From the NCBI GenBank assembly GCA_003707115.1, contig PPNB01000006.1, positions 124,001-188,000 on the forward strand: DNA of 64,000 bases, written 5' to 3'. Origin of the DNA: Tortispora ganteri. Lineage: Eukaryota. Under the pieces are notes generated by a model. It had not been told where the DNA came from. It saw only the letters and a program-made list of their open reading frames with translations, and made no database searches. Both the position numbers and the translations under genes were made by a program. How positions within the stretch are numbered: the first letter of the stretch is position 1; every line of letters begins with the position of its first letter. Below are positions 4,255 to 62,841 of this stretch, in pieces.

Positions 4255-4737
4255 TTAGGGTGCGTATACTTCATAGAACACTTTCAGTGTTCCACCCAAG
4301 CTCTGGAGTTTACCTCTGCCAAAAAACATAGTTTTGTTGACCCAGTTTTCTTCTGGCTTGGTTGAAGGAGTGTGAGCCAAAATTCCTACATAATACTCGG
4401 AGTCGCCGTATTTTCCGTCAGCTTCCTGACCAGCAAACACGGGCGCCAGCTTCTCATTGACGTTCATAACGCCTTTGTACTCAATATGACAAGGAGCTCC
4501 TGATGGAAGGGTAGCCACACAATTGACATTCAAGTAATTTACATGATTCTCCTGATCTGAAGATATCCAATCGGAGCCACCTTTAACTACGCCAGTTATT
4601 GGATACTTCTCCGGGTTTAAGGAAGTGATCTTACCGTCTAAGATCGTAATACATACTGTTCCGATTCCTCCCTTTGCACCAGCAGGAATTGGTGCTGCAA
4701 CTGTGAGCTCGATTTCAAAGCAGGGGTTTAATTGCAT
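4255..4737 (-). CDS. DUF3237 (UPF0311) beta-barrel protein
   Basis: GGSDW...YLNV...IEYKG...NWVNKTMFFGRG...VFYEVY pattern typical of DUF3237. ATG at 4737. Confidence 0.75.
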   Translation of the reverse strand: MQLNPCFEIELTVAAPIPAGAKGGIGTVCITILDGKITSLNPEKYPITGVVKGGSDWISSDQENHVNYLNVNCVATLPSGAPCHIEYKGVMNVNEKLAPVFAGQEADGKYGDSEYYVGILAHTPSTKPEENWVNKTMFFGRGKLQSLGGTLKVFYEVYAP

Positions 4738-4830
4738 TTTTAAAACTTGCTTATTCTTTGAATACACCTGTGTGGGGTTATACAGTGTGTTGGCTAGAAT
4801 GGTTAGTATTTATAGACTACACCGCTCAAA

Positions 4831-14074: not shown

Positions 14075-14682
14075 TCTATATGGCAGTGACTTGGTCGTAG
14101 TAAAGGTTTAGTGAGTCCGTCCGCCCAACATTTCCACTTACACTTAGATTTCGACATGATGCTGGCTTTCGGTCTAATACAGCTAATAAAATGTACAGTT
14201 CCTTTAATTTCGCAGTTCATTAAATTGCCTATATTAACTAACGTGTATTTTTAGTCCTGACATTATTGGCTAATGCCGTAGTTATTCTATCTGAAGATCG
14301 ATTCTTAGCAAGAAGTAAGTCAAACGCGCACATTGTCATCAGCCATTCACCCCCTTACTAACTATATATAGTCGGCTGGATAAACCATCCTTCTGACCAA
14401 TTCTCGACAAATAATGATAATGTAATGCACAGATTAATGGAAGTCATAAAAAGTCTGCGGACCGTCTTAAGAAGTAAGTACTTGCTCATATATACATACA
14501 CATAGGGCGGTATACGCACCTCCTACCTTTTTTCGCTTATCATTGCTAACTCTTCCCCTCCCACACAGTTCCTCTAGTAGGGATAAATACCATACTAATA
14601 ATTTACGAATTGGCTCTAGGCTGATAAATAAGCTGATCGGTTCTTTTATCTCGGTTTAAAATTATATATAATAATGCCTTAA

Positions 14683-20280: not shown

Positions 20281-22344
20281 TCATGATGCAGACGACTTCT
20301 TTTTAAATAGGCCAAGTCCGCGACTTTTCTTCGGCTTATTGACAGACGTTTGATCGCCGTTCTCGCTCAAAGGTGCTGGCTGTGTTTGCTTTGCAGGCAG
20401 CTCTTCAGGCACACGAGATACAGCAGTTGAAAACCCACCATTCTTGGGCTTGGAGGTAACACCGCTGTTGGGTGACAGATCGCCATCTTGGTGGATGTTC
20501 TCATCTATGCCATTTGATGTAGAGGCAGCATCAATCTGAGGATCGCTAACTGTTCGAGTCAGATGCAATCCTGATGTAGTTGAATTAGAAGTAACACGAT
20601 GTACTGTTGACGGCGAAAGTGGTGCAACAGCATTTAAGTCAAGTGGTTCGAGCCTGCTCGCATCAAACTCATCTTCTGATACCTCTTGATAGAATAGCAC
20701 ATAGGCTGACGCTAACCCTGGCATGTCGCCGAAGAAATTAGTGACATAGTCATCACTGACTTTCTCTACCATTTCGTCGTCAAATAAGAACCACCCATTT
20801 TTTTCGGTCTTGATGACTGCAACATAATGACCATGATAGGGTCCGCCTCCTATATGTATGATGGCTGCGTACAGTTCATATAGCCTTTCTGCCCGTTCTG
20901 CGTCGTCTGTGGTGTTCGTGAGCCGCAGATTATACGGGAACTGGATTCTGTGAAACAATTTTACGTTCCTTTGGTGTTCTTCAGAATATTTGAACCGTTT
21001 GAGATGTAAGGCTAGTACCTTGGGCAGTCTTTTGATTTTCATCCTTTTCTCCGCCTCTTGTAGGCCTCCACAGCAGTCGCAATGAAATTTATTTCTTTCG
21101 CATAACATTTCAGAAGCAGAAAATTGTCTCAGACAAGAGGTTACTGATGTATTCTTATCTAAATCAATAGACAAGTCAAGAAATTCTTCGTCTCTGCTAG
21201 AGACGTTTTCACATGTTAGACATCTCGTTTCGGATGTGAGCACACCTTGGAAGATTTCGTGGACCCATTGTGTATTTGTATTAGAGCCATTATTTCGGCT
21301 ATATGTTTCAACGGCATCTATGACTTCATTCAACAATAGGTTGAAGAATTCGTGAGCATCTTGGTGCATTGAAGACCGGAATAGCTCATTTTCTTTTTTC
21401 AGAACTTCAATTAGTCTAGAAGGTGTGACAACACCTATTCTTGAATATGACTCAGCCATACATTCAAATATATCTTTGAGACAGGTAAAAAGAGACTCTT
21501 TCATATTGTATTCTTCGCTTAAGCCGTGATCAACGTTGAGTATAGGACCTCTGAGTATTGCCACTCTTTTGCGCTGTTCTACGGTTAGAATCTGCATAGC
21601 GCCCGTATCGTCTGGGTAAATGTGAGTTGTAGGTGGCACTATTGCCGCAATAGGTATCGGGCCGGCTCCTACAACCATGCCCTTTTTAAGTAGTTGCTGC
21701 GACAGATCTGGAAGATTGCTGTGGTAGCCACATATTCCCACGGCCCGTTTACCATTTGTGGCGTCTTTAGCAGAAGAGTTGGCTTCGCTTGTATTCGTTA
21801 TCGTGCTTGAACCGCGGCGAAGTAAAGACGGGAAATTATCTGAGGATTTTCTAGAAGAGTCGGACGACTTGGAGTTAGACGATGTAGTTCCGTTTGACGA
21901 GCCTGGTGCCGATGCTGATTCAGCGCCGATTTGTGCTGAAAGTGGGATATTTGGGTCGATCGTAGTGAACAGATGACGCTTTTTTCCGGGCATAGACAGC
22001 TTTACGGTTCTGTTGGGGACATTAGGGAAGCTGAGTATAGCTTCTCTGAGAGGTTTCGTGTAGTAAAGACATTGCAGGACCGAATTACAGTAGCAGGTGT
22101 TACCAAAATTCTCGATACCGAAGAATTTGTCTGAGGGTCCAAATTCACAAGGAACGAGCGGATCAGGAACCGGTGGTAATGATTTCTGAAAATTGCTGAG
22201 CTTTGTAGGCGTTGCTGGATTCGCGGGGGTATCCTTGACCACGTTGCTTACTGAGGGATTCTTTGACATCAGAGGTTAGCAGTGTTCTTAGCACTATAAC
22301 GAATGATTTCTACTTACATTGTTTTTCTTCTTAAAGAATGACAT
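20281..22344 (-). CDS. UBP13: Ubiquitin-specific protease Ubp9/Ubp13/CreB (USP12/46 family); exons 22344-22318 and 22260-20281
   Basis: Cys box [23 protein letters not shown], His box GPYHGHY. Exon 1 (MSFFKKKNN) joins in phase 0 across an intron at 22317-22261 (GTAAGT...GCTAAC...AAG). Confidence 0.88.
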
Positions 22345-23012
22345 TATGAATGAATAATAAAATAATAGCGTCGATTACCCGCAGTTGCGTGTGGTTAGCA
22401 GATGCTCTGGAAGGAATCAACTGATGCTTAATGATTATACGTTGTGGGAGTTAGCAACGGTCAATAGAGGCGCAGGATTGGTGTATTTAAACCCATTCTG
22501 AAGACCGGATCCCCACCCTCCCCACCCAGCAGAATAGCTGAACACATGGACAGCCCATAGTATGATCCAAGTGAATGCTGTATTCTTTCGTCCATGACCT
22601 CTTTTGTTGTTTTTATATTGTATAACAATTTTATCAGATCTTTGACTGCTCAATTCTTTCTCATCACTGCCAATTAGTCCTTAACATGACTCTCGCGGTC
22701 AAAAAAATGCGGTAACCCCTCCCCCAATGATCTTCCTTTAGGGCACATATCACTCGAGATTCGTTTACTTTAGCTTTAGCCTTAGCGACTGTATGAGTTC
22801 CTCGTTCCATCGTGTGGTTACTGTCCTCTAGCTATCTTGTGATTTGCAGATGCTGTATATGTACACATTATAAGACCCTTATGTATCCCTTCGTTTGGTG
22901 GCCCCTAGAAGGCCGCTTAGAGCAGCAGAAGATGCTATGAGAGGACGCACTTTGCTAACACTGTTCACTGACACGGTTGGTATCTCTCTGTTGCACTCTA
23001 CCTTTTTAGCAG

Positions 23013-38423: not shown

Positions 38424-41400
38424 ATGTCTACGACCAAAGGCCGTCACGAGACCGTTTTAGCGGTAAATGTGAAAAAGGCAACATCACCGGAAGAAACCTC
38501 GCCTAAAAGAAAACATGTTAGAGCATGTATTGTGTACACCTGGGACCACCATTCGGCTAAAGCGTTCTGGACTTCATTGAAAGTGTTACCAATACTGAGC
38601 GACGAAATCCAAACCTTCAAGGCGCTAATTACTATCCATAAAGTCATGCAGGAAGGACATCCTTCGGCTATAAAGGAGACTATAAACAACGTCTCTTGGA
38701 TCGATGGCTGTGCGCGAACGCACCAGGCAAATACCAAAGGGTACAGTCACCTCATTAAAGCCTACGTCCAGTTTCTCATGCAGAAAATTGCCTTTCACAA
38801 GCAACACCCGGAATTTAACGGAACATTCGAGTATGCTGAATACGTATCTCTCAAGACTATTTCCGACCCCAACGAAGGCTACGAAACTGTGTCTGATCTT
38901 ATGAACCTCCAGGACGAAATCGACAAGTTTCAGAGTCTCATATTTGCCATGTTTCGTCGTAATTCTTCTAACGAGTGCAGAATAGCCGCACTTGTACCTC
39001 TTGTTACAGAAAGTTACGGCATATATAAGTTTGTCACCAGTATGTTGCGAGCATTAAACTCTACTATTCAGTCCGAAGATGCTCTGCTGCCCCTGATTGA
39101 TCGCTATAATATACAACACCAAAGGCTTCGCGATTTTTATTATGACTGTTCTAATCTGCGCTCTCTGACTTCACTTATTACTGTCCCTAAGTTGCCTATC
39201 GATCCGCCAAACCTATATCAGGAAGATGCAGATGCTCCACCTTTGCCTATGCGCCCCGCTGAGCACGAGAAAACTCCAGACGTATCTGAACTGACCCCTG
39301 ATGCTTCTGGAGTCCAAAGTTTGGACGCTGCACCAATGGCCGATTTCTGGTCGGAGCAACAGCGACTAGAAGAAGACAACCTTCGTATGCTTCAACAGCA
39401 AGAGGCAGAACGTCTTAGACAACAGCAATTGGAAGCACAGCAACAGCGCGAATACGAAGAACGCGCCAGAATGCAAATGGAGCAACAGCGTTTGGCTACA
39501 GAGCAATTGATGCAAGAACAACTTGCTCGTCAAGCACAGGGCCAAGTAGCCGAACTGGAACGTGCTTTGCTTGAAATGAAAGGTGCTCAGGATAGAAATC
39601 AGCTCATGCTAGAGCAATATGATTCCAGGGTTAAGACTCTTGAGGCCGAATTAGAAAGAGTTAGTGCTTCTGGAAACCAACAAATTGCTGCTAAGAACGA
39701 TCTAATCCAATCTCTTCAAGGTCAGGTTGATAATTGGCGCAAGAAATACGAATCTCTAGCCAAGTTGTATTCTCAATTGAGACAAGAACACTTAGAGCTT
39801 ATGCAAAAACATAAGCAGCTGCAATTGAAGTCCGCATCAGCGCAAGAGGCTATTGAGAGAAGGGAGAAAATTGAAAGAGACATGAAAGCCAAAAATATCG
39901 AACTTGCAGACTTGATAAGAGAACGTGACCGCGCTCGCAATGAGCTGGAACGCATTAAGAATGGCGAGTCTGACCGTTCCGAGAAGCTCGAAAGGGAAAT
40001 TAGAGACTTGAAAGAAAAGCTGGCAGATGCTGATCGTTCGAAGGGCTCTGAGTTGTCTTCCCTTCTTTCTCGCCATAATCGAGAGCTTACCGAACTGGAA
40101 GACGCACTTCGCGCGAAGCAGCGTGCAATCGACGACTTAACAGATAAATTGAACGGGTTTGATCCAGATACCGAGCAGAAGCTACGTGATAAAGACGAAG
40201 AACTTGAAATCTATAAGGTTGGAATGGATGAAGCACTGAAAGAGCTGCAAAAGCTAAAGTTAGCTCAAGATGACGGCGAAGCTGGAATGAATGCTCAGAT
40301 AGATATGGTGCTGAAAGCTAATATCGAACGGTTGTACAATGTGCTCGATATGCTGCTAAGGACCGGAGCAGCGCGAATCAAGGACGCTGTTATCAATTTA
40401 GATTCTCCTATGCAGGCGGGCAACCAGAGCACATCGCCTGCTTATACTCTGTCGATTGTTGAATATACGAGCGGTGCTGCGCTAGATTTTGCTTCAGCAT
40501 TTAATAATTTCATCGCGGAAGGCCCGTACGGAGACCAAGCGCCTCTTATTACAGCTCAAAACGAGTTCTGCCAAGGTATCACTTCTCTTCTAGATAACTG
40601 CAAGGGTCTCACAAGACTCGTCGACGACAAGGAGACGAACGTTCTAAACCTTTCAATTGATTCTGCGGAGACCAGCCAAAATTTCTTTTTGGGTTTGACA
40701 TCTGACAAACTTGAAGGTTTGAATGAAAACAAAAAAGTAGACAAGGTGTTGAACCTTATGGTTGCAGTACAAGAGAAACTTCAACGTGTGTCTGAAGAGA
40801 TTACTCGAATTTCTCCTGGAGGCGCAGATATCAGTTCTGCGGGAGATATTGGACAATTAGTCGACGACGAGCTTGCGAATGCAGTTCGTGCGATTGAAGA
40901 GGGCGCTAAGAAACTGGAGAGCCTGAAGGCGAAGCCCAAGAACTTGAATTTGAGTACGAAACAACTTAAGGTACACGAGAGTATACTTGCAGCAGCGATT
41001 GCGGTGACAAGGGCCATTGCGGCGCTGATCAAGGTCGCTACGGCTGCACAAAATGAAATCGTGGCTGCCGGTCGGGGCACTAGTTCCAAAACGCAGTATT
41101 ACAAGAAGCACAATAGATGGACTCAAGGGCTGATATCAGCGGCAAGAGCCACTGCAGTATCTACACATGATTTGATTGAGATATCAGACGGCGTGTTGTC
41201 GGACGTTAACAGTTATGAAGAGATGATTGTGAGCTGTCGGTCAGTTACTGCGGCTACTGCTCAGCTGGTAGCTGCGTCACGAGTGCGTATGAACACTGTA
41301 TCTAAGACGCAAGAGGGACTGGAGACATGCTCTAAGGACGTTAATAATGCATGCCGAGAGCTAGTGAAGCTTGTGGAGGAGCTAATTGCTGGAAGAAATG

Positions 41401-41594
41401 AAGGAGGAGACGATGTGGACTACGCATCGTTGTCTTCGCGCGATTTCAAGCAAGCGGAGATGGAAGCTCAGGTAGAAATCTTAAGACTGGAGCGCGCACT
41501 GGCGAATTCGAGGAAATCTCTTGGCAATATCAGAAAGATGAGCTATGTGCATGAATACAAAGGCGATGCTATTCGCGAATCTAACGGGAGATGA
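38424..41594 (+). CDS. SLA2: Sla2/End4 (ANTH, coiled coil, I/LWEQ)
   Basis: KATSPEETSPKRKHVRACIVYTWDH, YYKKHNRWTQGLISAA and EMEAQVEILRLE. Confidence 0.97.
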   Translation: MSTTKGRHETVLAVNVKKATSPEETSPKRKHVRACIVYTWDHHSAKAFWTSLKVLPILSDEIQTFKALITIHKVMQEGHPSAIKETINNVSWIDGCARTHQANTKGYSHLIKAYVQFLMQKIAFHKQHPEFNGTFEYAEYVSLKTISDPNEGYETVSDLMNLQDEIDKFQSLIFAMFRRNSSNECRIAALVPLVTESYGIYKFVTSMLRALNSTIQSEDALLPLIDRYNIQHQRLRDFYYDCSNLRSLTSLITVPKLPIDPPNLYQEDADAPPLPMRPAEHEKTPDVSELTPDASGVQSLDAAPMADFWSEQQRLEEDNLRMLQQQEAERLRQQQLEAQQQREYEERARMQMEQQRLATEQLMQEQLARQAQGQVAELERALLEMKGAQDRNQLMLEQYDSRVKTLEAELERVSASGNQQIAAKNDLIQSLQGQVDNWRKKYESLAKLYSQLRQEHLELMQKHKQLQLKSASAQEAIERREKIERDMKAKNIELADLIRERDRARNELERIKNGESDRSEKLEREIRDLKEKLADADRSKGSELSSLLSRHNRELTELEDALRAKQRAIDDLTDKLNGFDPDTEQKLRDKDEELEIYKVGMDEALKELQKLKLAQDDGEAGMNAQIDMVLKANIERLYNVLDMLLRTGAARIKDAVINLDSPMQAGNQSTSPAYTLSIVEYTSGAALDFASAFNNFIAEGPYGDQAPLITAQNEFCQGITSLLDNCKGLTRLVDDKETNVLNLSIDSAETSQNFFLGLTSDKLEGLNENKKVDKVLNLMVAVQEKLQRVSEEITRISPGGADISSAGDIGQLVDDELANAVRAIEEGAKKLESLKAKPKNLNLSTKQLKVHESILAAAIAVTRAIAALIKVATAAQNEIVAAGRGTSSKTQYYKKHNRWTQGLISAARATAVSTHDLIEISDGVLSDVNSYEEMIVSCRSVTAATAQLVAASRVRMNTVSKTQEGLETCSKDVNNACRELVKLVEELIAGRNEGGDDVDYASLSSRDFKQAEMEAQVEILRLERALANSRKSLGNIRKMSYVHEYKGDAIRESNGR

Positions 41595-43220
41595 AATAAA
41601 AGGTTGCCGCGCTCACGTACAAGACTTGAATGAGAGAGTTACCGGGCGAGAGCAACGAATTTGCGAGAAAAGAAACCAATTCAGACCATTGCTAAGTGAT
41701 TAGCTAATTCATTCAAGCGGTTTTCTATCATTTTATTTTATCATTTAAAGGCCTCAGAAGTGGATGTCGGTTAGTTACGGTTGACAACTTTTGCCTACTG
41801 TTGTCTAGCCGGGTCTATGGAGCACAATAAATAACTGAGTCATAAAACTCAATTTAGCTTTATATAAACCTATTCAAAAGGACGATCATTTCCCCTTTTT
41901 TATTTTTGTGCGATATCACTGTAATTTTTATAATGTAAGTAATTATTTTACATATTTTGCATTTAATTCAACGTATTGCAATCAGAATGGACTCTATGTG
42001 TGTATGTGTGTGCAATAAGAGCGGACCTATAGCTGAATGGTTGTGGTTTCCAAAAAAAAAGTACCAGGACTTACCGAGGATAATACTGCCGAAATAACCG
42101 AGAAAGATACCCCAAAATCACACTGACATTGACACATTGACCTTTTATTTATATTAAACAGCGATAAAATGATCTAAAAGCGAAGCTAATGACCCGCTTT
42201 GTACTCTGATTTAGATTGGATTGTACTATGTCGATTGTCCTACTGGAGAAGAAACGCCGCCCGGACGCAAGGACTCGTGCGCCGTTAGAACAGATTTTTG
42301 CCCTCGAACCTATTGCTACGAAATGTTACAAACAACCGCTATGAATATATTGTTTACAAGAATGGGGGAGCCTTTATGTTTAGGGCCTACTACGTTAATC
42401 GACCAAGACCGCTTCGACCGCTCCTCTTAGGGGGTAGTGCTTCTAGGGTTACAGGTCTGTCGTTGCTACACGGCTATTTCACATGCCTGTTCTCAAATTA
42501 CCCACAAACTGCTCGCCTGTCGGCTTTGACTGTCTCCACGGCTAAACAGATAGGCTCGCCGGTTATTCAACTCTACTTTCGCACTTTGACTAGGACTCAC
42601 GGCGGTTTGCCCTATCTGGCTCTACACCATCACTACTTACCCTGGTACCCTATTTTCGACAAGTAGTACCAGTTAGACAAATCGGCACTCCTGAACCTAA
42701 TTAACACCCCTAATAGGGTGAGCATCTGAAAGCTTAATGTATATTATCGCCGTTGTGATTGGACTATTCTTTGGAAATTTCCATCCAAGCGCACTGTAGG
42801 GACCCCGGCTATCAGAATCGCGTTTGTGGGTTGGTAAGAACCCCCACGGTTTCGGTCTCTATTATGTGTTCCAACTGCGCAATCGGAACAATCGCGGAAC
42901 TTTTTTCTTTATATTGCAGCATCGTCACTGGCATATACGCATGTATTTTCGCGTTTTTAAATCATCACATTGCTACCGCTACACGAATCAATACACATAC
43001 CTTTGCGCGAAACGGATCCTGTCGATCGCATGAAACTTGGTACCAATGTCAAATCGATCGCGGAAATCCCCTCCCTCCCCTTTCCACTCCTTTCCACTTT
43101 TAAACTTTTCTCATGCTTTTCTCAACCTCCATTGTCGGGTCAACAGCTATGTTCCTCCCCTAATAGGTGCTCGCACACTCACTAACGGCTTATTGCACAC
43201 ATTCTGCTAGTTCTTCTCAG

Positions 43221-43290
43221 GTACGCAATATCGCATCTATTTTTATCATTCAATTCTTCACACAAATGCCCTACTAACACTTTTGAACAG
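43221..43290 (+). other. Consensus intron (70 nt) in the distal upstream unit of the IDP locus
   Basis: CAG|GTACGC, TACTAAC at 43272-43278, CAG at 43288-43290. Confidence 0.7.
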
Positions 43291-43362
43291 CTCCTTTGCA
43301 GATTCTTTCTAGTACGAGGAAAGTTTAACACATTTAAACTTTCTAATTACCTTTTTTCTACT

Positions 43363-43453
43363 ATGCCTTCCCTTATTACGAGAGAGGTGAGCACCATTTC
43401 TAGACTTTGTACTAGGAATCTACTTTCTCACTGTTCACACTCCAAGATGTCTT
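43363..43453 (+). CDS. Candidate distal coding exon (MPSLITREVSTISRLCTRNLLSHCSHSKMS) ending in a phase-1 GTAAGT donor
   Basis: ATG with A at -3. The donor at 43454 is in the same phase as the IDP acceptor at 44438. Confidence 0.45.
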
Positions 43454-44179
43454 GTAAGTATTCACTCTCTATATTGCCTTGGTGTATTTTTCTTTTCGCC
43501 AAATTTTATCTTAACTCAAATCACCATTTCTCAATACAGATTTCATGATTTTCAATGGCCGTTTTTCCTGATTCTCTCTTATCCCCAGACAGCGATTCAA
43601 CACTTACAAAGCGTCAACTTCTTTCCATCCTTCCCTAATAGACAAATTCGCCGGCTATTTCTGCGATTGTTGTTCGAAACATCAAATTGACAGTATAAAG
43701 TTCTCAGACTTGTGCTATTCAGTCAATGTTTTCCCCCAGTACTGCACAACATTACCGTCCTTTCCGCACTAAAGCTTTTCATTTCGCTGCGGCAGGATGA
43801 CCAAATCTCTTCCTTTAGAGGATCAGGTAGGCATCACTAATCTAACCCCTTTGATGCATACTCGGGTCAAGTATTCGGCGAATGTTTATTGCGGTGAACC
43901 TCTGGCCTCTTTCGACGCTCTCTTCGTTAGATTTTCGCCGACCGCCTACCAGATATAGGGTGTGGGGGTTCTATTCACTCCACAATTACTCTTCATTATA
44001 TGAGCTGCCTTCGCCAGGTTGCGTTATGGATACGCCGTTGCTAGGAAAGATTGGGCTCTTGTCCTACCGCGCTAAAGCCCTGGGATTTGCCCCCCTCCCT
44101 TGTTCTTTTTCCCGGTTCCCGGTACATGGCCTTCTGCTAGACCGAGGGTGAACTCTGTTTTCAAAACCTTAATCTAACC

Positions 44180-44189
44180 AAATGTGGGG
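44180..44189 (+). promoter_or_regulatory. Mig1/CreA site (AAATGTGGGG) upstream of the proximal IDP exon
   Basis: SYGGRG with an AT-rich 5' flank, about 80 bp before ATG 44269. Confidence 0.45.
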
Positions 44190-44268
44190 ATTGCATTTGC
44201 TCATTTGAGTGAGTATCTCTTCTCTTGACATATACAGGTTACATATTCATTTTCTCTTTGTAACAATC

Positions 44269-45667
44269 ATGGAAACCGCCAGAAAGAGATTGAATCTAGT
44301 CTCGTCTCAGTTGACATCGTCTTCTTCGTGTACGTTTCGCTAAAGGGGAGGGAATAGAAAAGAAATAAAAAAGAAAGGCACTCCTGTCGAACCAATCAGT
44401 CATATTTATTTCACGTTCTTTCTACTAACTATTTCTAGACTCAACCGATGCTAAAATTAAAGTCAAAAACCCCATCGTCGAGATGGATGGTGATGAGATG
44501 ACTCGTATTATCTGGAAAATGATCAAAGATAAGCTCATTTTCCCTTACTTAGATATTGATCTCAAATATTACGATCTTGGAATCGAATATCGCGACCAGA
44601 CCGATGATAAGGTCACTATTGAGGCTGCCGAGGCTATCCTTAAATACAAGGTCGGTGTCAAATGCGCCACCATTACTCCTGACGAAGCCCGTGTGAAGGA
44701 ATTCAACCTCAAGAAGATGTGGCTCTCACCTAACGGAACTATCCGCAACATTCTTGGAGGAACTGTTTTCCGTGAACCTATAGTTATTCCCAGAATTCCT
44801 CGTTTAGTGCCTGGATGGGAGAAGCCTATCATTATAGGTCGTCATGCTCATGGTGACCAATACAAGGCCACTGATATTGTCGTTCCTAATGAAGGTACGG
44901 TCGAACTAGTGTACAAGCCCAGTGATGGCAGCGCTCCTCAAGTTCACAAAGTTTTTGACTACAAGAATGGCGGAGGTGTTGCCATGGCTATGTATAATAC
45001 CGACGAATCAATCAGAGGGTTCGCACACTCTTCGTTCAAGCTAGCATTGAGCAAGAAGTATAACTTATTCATGTCTACCAAGAATACTATCTTGAAGAGA
45101 TACGATGGACGATTTAAGGATATCTTCCAGGAGATCTACGACAACGAGTATCAGAAGGACTTTGAAGCCGCTGGCATCTGGTACGAGCACCGTCTGATCG
45201 ACGATATGGTTGCCCAAATGGTAAAGTCTAAGGGTGGATACATTATCGCCATGAAGAACTACGATGGTGATGTTCAATCTGACATTGTTGCTCAAGGATT
45301 CGGATCTCTTGGACTCATGACATCCGTACTTATTACTCCTGATGGCAATGCTTTCGAGAGCGAGGCCGCTCATGGTACCGTTACCCGTCACTACAGACAA
45401 TGGCAGCAAGGAAAGGAGACTTCCACCAACTCAATTGCTTCTATTTTCGCCTGGACCCGTGGACTAATTCAACGTGGAACTCTTGACGAGACCCCTGAGG
45501 TTGTTGAATTTGGCAAGCGTCTTGAATCCGCTGTCTTGGACACTGTTCAAATTGATGGAATCATGACGAAGGACTTGGCTTTGTCTTGTGGGAAGACCGA
45601 CCGCAGCTCTTATGTTCTCACTGAAGAGTTCATTGATGCTGTTGCCGACCGTCTTGCTAAGAACTAA
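44269..45667 (+). CDS. IDP: NADP-dependent isocitrate dehydrogenase; exons 44269-44329 and 44439-45667, N-terminal PTS2
   Basis: [42 protein letters not shown] and [10 protein letters not shown]. Intron GTACGT...TACTAAC...TAG at 44330-44438. Exon 1 is [20 protein letters not shown]. Confidence 0.95.
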
Positions 45668-45967
45668 AAAGAAAAAGGATAGCTATAGAAGACTTTGTGA
45701 GATGCAGTAGTTTTCTTTTTGTTTTTTCTATTTCCAGCTGGGCTAGCTAATTACGCCGATGTGCGGCGGGTGTATTTGTAACACGTTCTCCGGATGTTGT
45801 CTGATTCACATTAGTCTCAGTTTTATAGTAAAACGATAAATCCTTTTGCCAACTTACATTAATGTATTTGCTATCGCATAAAAAACCTTAGTGCCTTGAC
45901 ACCTACGCGGCATAGTTGTTCCAGATCCAGATAAATCGCCTCAGGGCGTGTGTATTATATGAGTCTG

Positions 45968-45975
45968 TGACGTCA
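45968..45975. promoter_or_regulatory. CRE (TGACGTCA) upstream of the OM45-like gene
   Basis: Palindrome GTGACGTCAC, about 95 bp upstream of ATG 46070. Confidence 0.5.
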
Positions 45976-46069
45976 CCGCAACTTTAAACAATATTGAAAG
46001 CCGCCCATGTGCTATTAAATGGCAATATTTCCTGCTATTCTCCTTTAGATACAATTATTCTGATTATCA

Positions 46070-46843
46070 ATGTCTGGTAGATTATTGAAACCTATAGCTA
46101 TAATTGGTGCATTTGGAGGCGCAGGTTACTGGTATTACCAGAGGCAGCAGAGCAAGACGGTTACACAGTTCAGTATACCGCCGAGACAAGTTGGACCGAA
46201 TGAACAGGTGGGCTCTAAGATTGGAAAATCAATTGATGATGCAGCTGAAAAAACCAAAGATCTCACTTCGCAGGCTCGGGCACAAGCAGTTACACTCACC
46301 AATGCAGCCTATGACAAGATCATGGCTGCGAAGGACTCGTTTGATCAGATGGTAGAGAGTACATTAAACCAAAGTAAGGAGGCGTTTGATGCTGCGAAGG
46401 AAGAACTAGAAAAGGCTAAGGAGAGTGCGAAGAAGCTGGCAAAAGATGGAGATCAAGCCGCGCGAGACGCTGCCGAGAAGGCTTCTAAGGCGGCGCAGGA
46501 GAAGTACGACGAAACTGCCAAGTCATATGAGGAAGCTAAACAGTACGTCTACAATAAAGCTGTAGAGCAGCAAAACATGATAACTAAGGAGATGCAAAAG
46601 AATTATGATTCTGCAGCTTCCAAGTACCGAGAATTGCAAGCCCGTGCGACAAAGACTATAGGTAAGGCTAAAGACTCCGGATCAGAGTCTTTAAAAGAGT
46701 CAATTGACAAAGCCAAAGAAGCTATGGACAGTGCCAAAGATAGCCTCGATAGGCAGCAAAAAGATGCAAAGGAAGAGATTGCTCGTGCGAATGCAACTAT
46801 ATATGGCAAATCGAGCTGGTGGCCCAGCTGGCTCAGCAAGTAA
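46070..46843 (+). CDS. Signal-anchored, Ala/Lys/Glu-rich helical protein (Om45/LEA-like)
   Basis: Short N-terminal anchor (IAIIGAFGGAGYWYY), AK/E-rich helices, and YGKSSWWPSWLSK, which resembles a Trp motif I recall from Om45. Confidence 0.6.
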   Translation: MSGRLLKPIAIIGAFGGAGYWYYQRQQSKTVTQFSIPPRQVGPNEQVGSKIGKSIDDAAEKTKDLTSQARAQAVTLTNAAYDKIMAAKDSFDQMVESTLNQSKEAFDAAKEELEKAKESAKKLAKDGDQAARDAAEKASKAAQEKYDETAKSYEEAKQYVYNKAVEQQNMITKEMQKNYDSAASKYRELQARATKTIGKAKDSGSESLKESIDKAKEAMDSAKDSLDRQQKDAKEEIARANATIYGKSSWWPSWLSK

Positions 46844-62396: not shown

Positions 62397-62841
62397 TGTA
62401 GAAACAGAAAAGGTAGGGACGAGATTCACAGAAATGCGATTAGAAAAGAGCGAAGATTTTATGAAAATCAGCTAAGTCAATGACTTAATTAGTTAAAAAT
62501 CAAGAAGAAAAAAAAGGTAGAAAAACAGAAATTGTTTATCAATTATATAAGCAACAAAAATGAACAGGAAAAAACTATGAACTAAATGAGAATTGGTTTC
62601 GCCCTAAACCATCTCAAAACTCTATTTTAAGCAACGGGGAAGAAAATAATGATGACACTTTTAGTGAAATGGTGGGGGGTAGGGAAAAGGTGTCTAGTTT
62701 GATTTCATGTGGCAGGCGATTTTAATGGTCAAACTCTAAATTACCACAGAATTCAAGATTAACGACCATTGTTTAGTACTTACAACTACAAAATCATTTA
62801 TTGATGATCTACTATATATATTTATCATTTAAATGTCAATA

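Follow-up and report, generated by a model that had tools for sequence, protein, structure and literature searches.

How does an isocitrate dehydrogenase gene whose catalytic exon has no usable start codon obtain its N terminus, and could a choice between two first exons send the same enzyme to different compartments? This question is raised by a 64,000-nucleotide (nt) stretch of the Tortispora ganteri genome (GenBank assembly GCA_003707115.1, contig PPNB01000006.1, positions 124,001 to 188,000 of the forward strand), here called the window, which carries a gene for NADP-dependent isocitrate dehydrogenase (NADP-IDH; IDP). The best explanation, to which we assign a probability of roughly 0.45, is a single IDP gene in which a proximal first exon would supply a type 2 peroxisomal targeting signal (PTS2) and a distal first exon, transcribed from a second promoter, would supply a mitochondrial presequence. 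Coordinates are positions in the window, and features are on the plus strand unless otherwise stated.

The catalytic exon requires an upstream start exon

An open frame runs from 44429 to 45667, with its stop codon at 45665 to 45667, and comprises 408 codons counted from 44441. The Pfam family PF00180 (Iso_dh) matched residues 7 to 401 of these 408 along its whole profile (1 to 348 of 348; E = 8e-66), and every one of the protein matches listed for the exon, at least 120, had an E value of <1e-214. Identity to NADP-isocitrate dehydrogenases of Geotrichum, Magnusiomyces, and Blastobotrys was 84 to 85%, and alignments to the Geotrichum- and Magnusiomyces-type proteins covered 98 to 100% of the exon. 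By these matches the gene is a eukaryotic NADP-IDH (IDP or IDH1-IDH2 type), although we infer NADP specificity only from the high identity to NADP enzymes. Taken as a whole, the locus reads as one intron-containing IDP gene from a budding yeast, and the best protein matches suggest a Dipodascales-like one.

The catalytic exon (44439 to 45667, stop codon included) starts after a TACTAAC branch motif at 44423 to 44429 and an AG at 44437 to 44438 (TAG, 44436 to 44438), and its codon-usage score is 0.334 per codon. Bases 44439 and 44440 (AC) complete a codon whose first base comes from the upstream exon, which makes the acceptor phase 1. The first in-frame Met of the exon is residue 15, inside the conserved fold; the exon therefore has no usable start of its own, and an upstream start exon is needed.

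An initial annotation of this stretch had held that the catalytic exon needs a phase-1 donor and that two are available. A scan of all donor-like hexamers from 41601 to 44340 returned exactly two consensus donors preceded by a phase-1, ATG-led frame, at 44330 and 43454; the remaining phase-1 cases were weak GTGTGT, GTGTGC, or GTGCGC sites far upstream. Both donors were read directly in the sequence, and the coordinates that had been given for the two exons, their donors, and their ATGs were correct. Each exon ends in a T, so that the proximal and the distal exon would form the identical split Tyr codon with the AC of exon 2.

The proximal exon carries a PTS2 match

The coding part of the proximal first exon (44269 to 44329) consists of an ATG at 44269, 20 codons in all, and the T at 44329, with an A at position −3 of the ATG. 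It is followed by a 109-nt intron (44330 to 44438) with the donor GTACGT at 44330 to 44335, TACTAAC at 44423 to 44429, and the acceptor TAG 9 nt past the branch motif. Codon usage of the exon (0.197 per codon, with 13% of 165 null frames as high) leans toward coding. Residues 7 to 15 of the proximal isoform, encoded at 44287 to 44313, are RLNLVSSQL, a position near the N terminus that depends on a gene model resting on splice signals alone. The nonapeptide matches the strict pattern (R/K)(L/V/I/Q)xx(L/V/I/H/Q)(L/S/G/A/K)x(H/Q)(L/A/F) and fits both of the published PTS2 consensus forms quoted in the passages of PMC8124512 that deal with this signal.

The strict pattern occurs 10 times in the 127,996 six-frame residues of the window (7.8e-5 per residue), which corresponds to about 0.001 expected per exon of this size, and shuffling the residues of the exon itself produced it 91 times in 200,000. 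The match is far beyond chance. The enzyme ends in AKN, with no PTS1-like tripeptide; a C-terminal [SAC][KRH][LMI] was present in 7 of 182 relatives collected from two protein searches. The proximal exon is almost certainly real and PTS2 encoding, in agreement with the PTS2 that the initial annotation had suggested. The best-supported prediction for the default product is a peroxisomal enzyme imported by Pex7, because the canonical PTS2 is in the nearest exon and the protein carries no PTS1. Of about 23 long open reading frames (ORFs) in the window, 15 were scanned, and none of these was Pex7-like.

The motif recurs among the relatives. A strict PTS2 was found within the first 15 residues of 4 of the 182 proteins (P0011, P0013, P0017 [Geotrichum reessii], and P0154). 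Counted over the 66 unique presequences among the relatives, the 4 matches compare with 0.064 expected, and none of 2,000 shuffles reached 4; three of the four proteins are close kin. The matches read RLASLASQL, RISALAAQL, and RLNALKAQL. The motif, present in Geotrichum-type and one Wickerhamomyces-like IDP N termini, may thus be older and wider than T. ganteri. Four other relatives, P0085, P0121, and P0139 (391 amino acids [aa]) and P0026 (403 aa), have as their first residue a Met that lies within the conserved fold, and such starts would fit missed first exons separated by an intron.

Upstream of the proximal ATG, a CCTCGG hexamer on the minus strand (44142 to 44147) lies about 125 nt away; we take it to be of the fatty-acid regulator site type. 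It is a weak lead, since the hexamer occurs 11 times in the window versus 13.1 expected and is not enriched. A tandem TTCCCGG TTCCCGG at 44113 to 44126 is followed by CCGAGG, the whole about 125 to 155 nt before the ATG, and these elements (44113 to 44147) could form a zinc-cluster regulator site for the proximal promoter.

A distal candidate exon with a presequence-like peptide

The coding part of the distal candidate first exon (43363 to 43453) opens with an ATG at 43363 and comprises 30 codons plus the T at 43453, ending at a phase-1 donor; a second ATG lies at 43447 to 43449. From the donor GTAAGT at 43454 to 43459 (GTAAGTAT; context GTAAGTAT), splicing to the same branch point and acceptor would remove an alternative intron of 985 nt (43454 to 44438), within which lie the proximal exon, its promoter region, and the 109-nt intron. 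An ATG-led frame of at least 28 codons with a phase-1 consensus donor arose in 7.4% of 2,000 dinucleotide shuffles of 41601 to 44268 and in 2.0% for 43101 to 44268. In the other intergenic DNA of the window, 8 of 105 donor-by-phase trials reached at least 20 codons and 1 of 105 reached at least 28. By itself, the distal configuration is only mildly unlikely by chance.

The encoded peptide is more distinctive. It has a net charge of +3, one acidic residue, 57% R/S/T/A/L, and a hydrophobic moment of 0.76, all within the range of 27 relatives' presequences, whose medians are +4, 0 acidic residues, 58% R/S/T/A/L, and a moment of 0.58. None of 89 ATG-led intergenic null peptides was as presequence-like, and only 118 of 5,154 and 20 of 719 local-composition nulls (2.3 to 2.8%) equaled it in these features. 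By these simple measures the peptide resembles a mitochondrial presequence in composition, charge, and amphipathicity, in agreement with the earlier description.

A feature that is new relative to the initial annotation is a candidate 70-nt intron in the 5′ untranslated region (5′ UTR) of the distal transcript (43221 to 43290), with GTACGC at 43221, TACTAAC at 43272 to 43278, and CAG ending at 43290. Three complete sets of donor, TACTAAC, and YAG occur in the window, whereas 300 shuffled windows averaged 0.77; besides this one, they comprise the IDP intron and one in a small multi-intron gene at 14315. By our arithmetic, about 0.016 such sets are expected on the plus strand of the 2.7-kb region upstream of the IDP gene. 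TACTAAC alone is not enriched (4 in the window versus 6.7 expected); only the full signal sets are. The candidate intron ends 73 nt upstream of the distal ATG, and no ATG occurs from 43291 to 43363; position 43363 would therefore be the first AUG of the spliced mRNA. A spliced plus-strand mRNA with this first AUG is a likely candidate transcript.

Other ways of using the upstream region were considered and rejected. In a three-exon model (distal to proximal to exon 2), the only acceptor-like site ahead of the proximal exon, a CAG ending at 44237, leads to a stop within 8 codons; by hand, the donors at 43387 and 43827 were found to be phase 0, and a stop comes before the one at 44209. If the distal donor were instead joined to acceptor-like sites at 43540 or 43641, also traced by hand, the short introns would yield only short dead-end frames. 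A minus-strand gene in 41600 to 42900 would have frames of only 30 and 36 codons with no convincing splice continuity. No Rfam family was found at E ≤ 1 in 41000 to 46200 and no tRNA in the window, and the 2.7-kb upstream region has no repeat elsewhere in the window.

Two patches of 41600 to 44268 are richer in G+C (42200 to 43100 and 43800 to 44200, about 0.47 to 0.49 versus 0.34 to 0.40 in typical spacers). A 14-nt direct repeat on the plus strand, TCCYYCCCTAATAG, occurs at 43153 to 43166, before the candidate 5′-UTR intron, and at 43628 to 43641, inside the long intron; it may be due to chance.

A proposed model with mutually exclusive first exons

In the model that we propose, the promoter in use would determine the compartment: its transcript would carry one or the other of two mutually exclusive first exons, both joined to exon 2 through one branch point and acceptor (TACTAAC at 44423, AG at 44438). 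Transcripts beginning at the nearest exon (ATG 44269, donor 44330) would yield a PTS2 enzyme destined for the peroxisome via Pex7. A second promoter about 1.1 kb upstream would produce a transcript with its own 5′-UTR intron, in which the first AUG opens the 30-codon exon and the donor at 43454 is spliced over 985 nt to the shared acceptor, skipping the PTS2 exon. The identical enzyme would then bear a basic, Ser/Leu/Arg-rich, presequence-like peptide and be the mitochondrial form. We put the use of the distal exon and second promoter at about even odds. The most speculative step is a signal-less cytosolic form from AUG 43447, which is two codons ahead of the junction and could be reached by leaky scanning or from a transcript that starts farther downstream.

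The firm core of this model is thus a predicted PTS2 exon on an IDP without a PTS1, of which the distal presequence exon would be a plausible extension. The initial annotation had suggested that the locus may serve three compartments. Its NADP-IDH identity, its PTS2, and its presequence-like distal peptide stand; its cytosolic start does not add much, because an internal Met near the presequence end is present in 19 of 56 relatives, so a second-AUG design is common and ATG 43447 discriminates little. The cytosolic form is the weakest part of that interpretation. Three compartments from one IDP gene, by two promoters, two first exons, and a nested AUG, is accordingly a tentative proposal that we hold at well under even odds; it would imply that a PTS2 route for IDP has replaced the PTS1 of other fungi.

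Points against the distal exon and alternative explanations

Several observations weigh against the two-exon model, and a number of them favor an alternative in which only the proximal exon makes protein. The gene would then encode a dedicated PTS2-type peroxisomal IDP, the equivalent of Idp3, with mitochondrial and cytosolic IDPs made from one or two other genes. The distal frame and donor would be due to chance or would belong to a noncoding or regulatory upstream transcript that modulates the proximal promoter, as a long, undecoded 5′-extended isoform or by promoter interference. At least two IDP genes are indeed present in many of the yeasts matched (P0062 and P0113 in Nadsonia, P0083 and P0094 in Scheffersomyces, and the 413-aa and 439-aa forms in Geotrichum). 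Codon usage provides no signal in the distal exon (−0.019 per codon, with 65% of 89 null frames at least as high), and the configuration of this exon, as given above, arises in 2 to 7% of shuffles. Position 8 of the distal peptide is Glu, and an acidic residue in the first 10 is found in only 2 of the 66 unique presequences. Immediately before the junction Tyr the peptide reads K-M-S, with no Arg at −2 or −3, whereas the relatives, judged by eye, mostly have R-x-F/Y-S. Its resemblance to the relatives' presequences does not go beyond composition, as 0.49 to 0.94 of its own shuffles score as high. The required intron of 985 nt is very long for the window, 7 to 17 times the length of the supported introns (57, ~60, 70, 96, 109, and 147 nt), defined as those with coding continuity or full signals.

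The donor itself adds little. GTAAGTA occurs 18 times on both strands of the window versus 7.2 expected, and none of 100 shuffles reached 18. Several of the copies are antisense within long ORFs and cannot all be splice donors; because the heptamer is overrepresented even antisense to genes, a good donor alone means little. The fold of the 985-nt intron is no more stable than that of shuffles (z = −0.30). A "zipper" joining the 5′ splice site to the branch point by polypyrimidine/polypurine pairing of 43474 to 43518 with 44344 to 44381 was rejected: its −20.5 kcal/mol compares with a shuffle mean of −22.7, 69% of 500 shuffles were as good, and it ranked 86th of 103 control windows. The proximal peptide likewise is no closer to the relatives' presequences than its own shuffles, of which 0.32 to 0.65 score as high. 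Since neither exon peptide aligns above its own shuffles, we claim recurrence of the motif and not homology.

Paralogue number is not informed by phylogeny. In a tree made by a quick method from 77 of the first 120 matches plus the window enzyme, the latter sits on a polytomy, and the two Geotrichum forms, of 413 and 439 aa, group together as a pair specific to that lineage (SH-like approximate likelihood ratio test, 89); the tree says nothing on the number of paralogues here.

Set against the proximal-only explanation, a strong phase-correct donor, a peptide whose presequence-like features are equaled by 2 to 3% of nulls, an upstream intron set, and a first AUG all coincide, and no terminator or alternative coding use was found for the distal transcript. 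We regard a proximal-only gene as a serious possibility, though one that we would not expect to prevail.

A second alternative questions the proximal signal. The proximal N terminus would be ambiguous, mainly or partly a short mitochondrial presequence that perhaps also directs the enzyme to peroxisomes, and the distal exon would be unneeded. In P0011, P0013, P0017, and P0154 the R-L-x-x-L-x-x-Q-L pattern lies inside longer, Arg-containing, mitochondrial-looking N termini, with near matches to the PTS2 pattern in P0122 and P0132. This too weighs against the two-exon model, as the motif could belong to an amphipathic signal for mitochondria and not be a dedicated PTS2. Either these four relatives would be dually targeted or the helices of IDP presequences would simply tend to show this pattern. 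The proximal peptide is basic and Ser rich (net charge +2, 70% R/S/T/A/L), and some yeast IDP presequences are short, with 14 to 17 residues before a KIKV-type anchor. The proximal peptide nevertheless begins with Met-Glu, and D or E at residue 2 is found in 0 of the 66 unique presequences, which argues that it is not an ordinary presequence. Its amphipathicity is low (moment, 0.38 versus the median of 0.58 for the 27 presequences), and after the motif it has no Arg-containing tail like that of the Geotrichum-type forms. An ambiguous proximal signal is therefore unlikely.

That the distal frame is an independent small gene of 61 unspliced codons, unrelated to IDP and with its own 5′-UTR intron, is highly improbable: the frame is ATG led, follows the candidate 5′-UTR intron, and has a basic N terminus and a hydrophobic stretch, but a search of 1.84 billion representative proteins gave it 0 relatives at E ≤ 0.001, its best Atlas score was an unconvincing 0.84 with low recognition, no Pfam family was found in the 20 stop-to-stop frames of 42149 to 44340 (best E, 0.18), and the first 30 codons, the only part scored, carry no codon-usage signal.

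Comparison with known systems

Targeting of one gene's product to several compartments is already known; a PTS2 on IDP would be the new element. As described in the portions of PMC3798809 that treat it, the single NADP-IDH gene idpA of Aspergillus nidulans serves mitochondria, cytosol, and peroxisomes (Szewczyk et al., 2001). A longer transcript adds the presequence, in a shorter one the start is the second in-frame AUG, immediately ahead of the mature enzyme part, and a C-terminal PTS1 directs the protein to peroxisomes, all from one contiguous 5′ region (PMC3798809). The two-exon model for T. ganteri is similar in that alternative 5′ ends of one gene would decide the presence of a presequence, with ATGs 43363 and 43447 flanking the presequence-like peptide. 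It differs in that the protein lacks a PTS1, an N-terminal PTS2 lies on its own exon, and mutually exclusive first exons would share one acceptor.

In Saccharomyces cerevisiae, IDP1, IDP2, and IDP3 are separate intronless genes for the three compartments, and Idp3 supplies peroxisomal NADPH (sections of PMC3798809 and PMC9549241). What the initial annotation had said of these genes and of idpA agrees with the corresponding text of PMC3798809. The enzyme family and the compartments are the same as those proposed here, where a single intron-containing locus with a PTS2 would take the place of three genes. S. cerevisiae Idp3 uses a PTS1. A literature search for a PTS2-bearing IDP found no case, and the peroxisomal or glycosomal IDHs described in the relevant parts of PMC3798809 and PMC9512073 have a PTS1. 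The PTS2 of S. cerevisiae Gpd1, given as RLNLTSGHL in PMC8124512, is identical to RLNLVSSQL at 6 of 9 positions, shares its consensus, and also lies near the N terminus, although the enzyme is unrelated.

A further precedent is GND1 of Candida albicans, which encodes 6-phosphogluconate dehydrogenase and in which alternative splicing adds a PTS2, giving cytosolic and peroxisomal enzyme (Strijbis et al., 2012, as reported in a passage of PMC3798809). In both cases a budding-yeast NADPH-producing dehydrogenase would gain a PTS2 from an alternative transcript form of one gene, here by prediction. For the IDP gene, in contrast, the PTS2 exon is proximal and would be the default, the alternative would be a distal presequence exon with, presumably, a second promoter, and three destinations are proposed from mutually exclusive first exons that share one acceptor. 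In MDH2 of Yarrowia lipolytica, alternative splicing gives cytosolic and peroxisomal isoforms through a 4-nt shift of the 3′ splice site that creates a C-terminal PTS1 (Kabran et al., 2012, as outlined in parts of PMC3798809 and PMC8124512). That yeast is of the same broad lineage and one gene is again involved, but the T. ganteri locus would use alternative first exons and not a C-terminal PTS1. A literature search for yeast alternative first exons combining peroxisomal and mitochondrial targeting found no such case.

Among the IDPs themselves, the Geotrichum-type proteins of 439 to 440 aa (P0013, P0017, and P0011) together with P0154 are 82 to 83% identical to the window enzyme and have their strict PTS2 at residues 3 to 15. 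There, 15 to 20 presequence-like residues follow the motif continuously, whereas the motif exon of the window is short (20 codons) and the presequence-like peptide is on a separate upstream exon. A metagenome scan for loci of relatives returned 80, of which only L001 (79% identity) is yeast-like; it is an intronless IDP gene with a cytosolic-type start. The other 79, at 64 to 68% identity, were assumed from identity alone to be bacterial-type IDH.

Delivery of NADPH enzymes to several compartments is usually explained by gene duplication, as in IDP1, IDP2, and IDP3 of S. cerevisiae, or by a presequence plus a PTS1, as in A. nidulans. If the two-exon model is true, a first exon dedicated to a PTS2 would give IDP a third solution, in which the cell could adjust the peroxisomal and mitochondrial shares through the promoters alone, for example between fatty acids and glucose. 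Gene callers that miss 60-nt first exons would mislabel such enzymes as cytosolic or truncated.

Neighboring genes and intron style in the window

The window is a gene-dense fungal chromosome segment of 42% G+C, with introns that are few and short and have TACTAAC-type branch sites, as in budding yeasts. Upstream of the IDP gene and in the same orientation, the neighbor is a Sla2-like gene (ANTH plus I/LWEQ) that ends at 41594; downstream, the next gene encodes a small coiled-coil protein that matches Mitofilin weakly.

Between two minus-strand genes, 14111 to 14570 on the plus strand contains three consecutive intron signal sets (GTGAGT, AACTAAC, and TAG; GTAAGT, TACTAAC, and TAG; GTAAGT, TGCTAAC, and CAG), which are useful for calibrating intron style. 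The small exons may encode a Yos1/IER3IP1-type small membrane protein, which they resemble; the 33-residue third exon had no Pfam match. On the minus strand at 22257 to 22345, a ubiquitin hydrolase gene (ORF 20281 to 22275) apparently has a 9-codon first exon followed by an intron of about 60 nt (GTAAGTA, TGCTAAC, and AAG). Possible 5′-UTR introns were also noted on the minus strand at two places: at 4791 to 4808, TACTAAC and TAG lie just upstream of the ATG of the ORF at 4255 to 4809, and at 62470 to 62783, the ATG of a glycerol-3-phosphate dehydrogenase-like gene is preceded, at a distance of about 390 nt, by a GTAAGTA.

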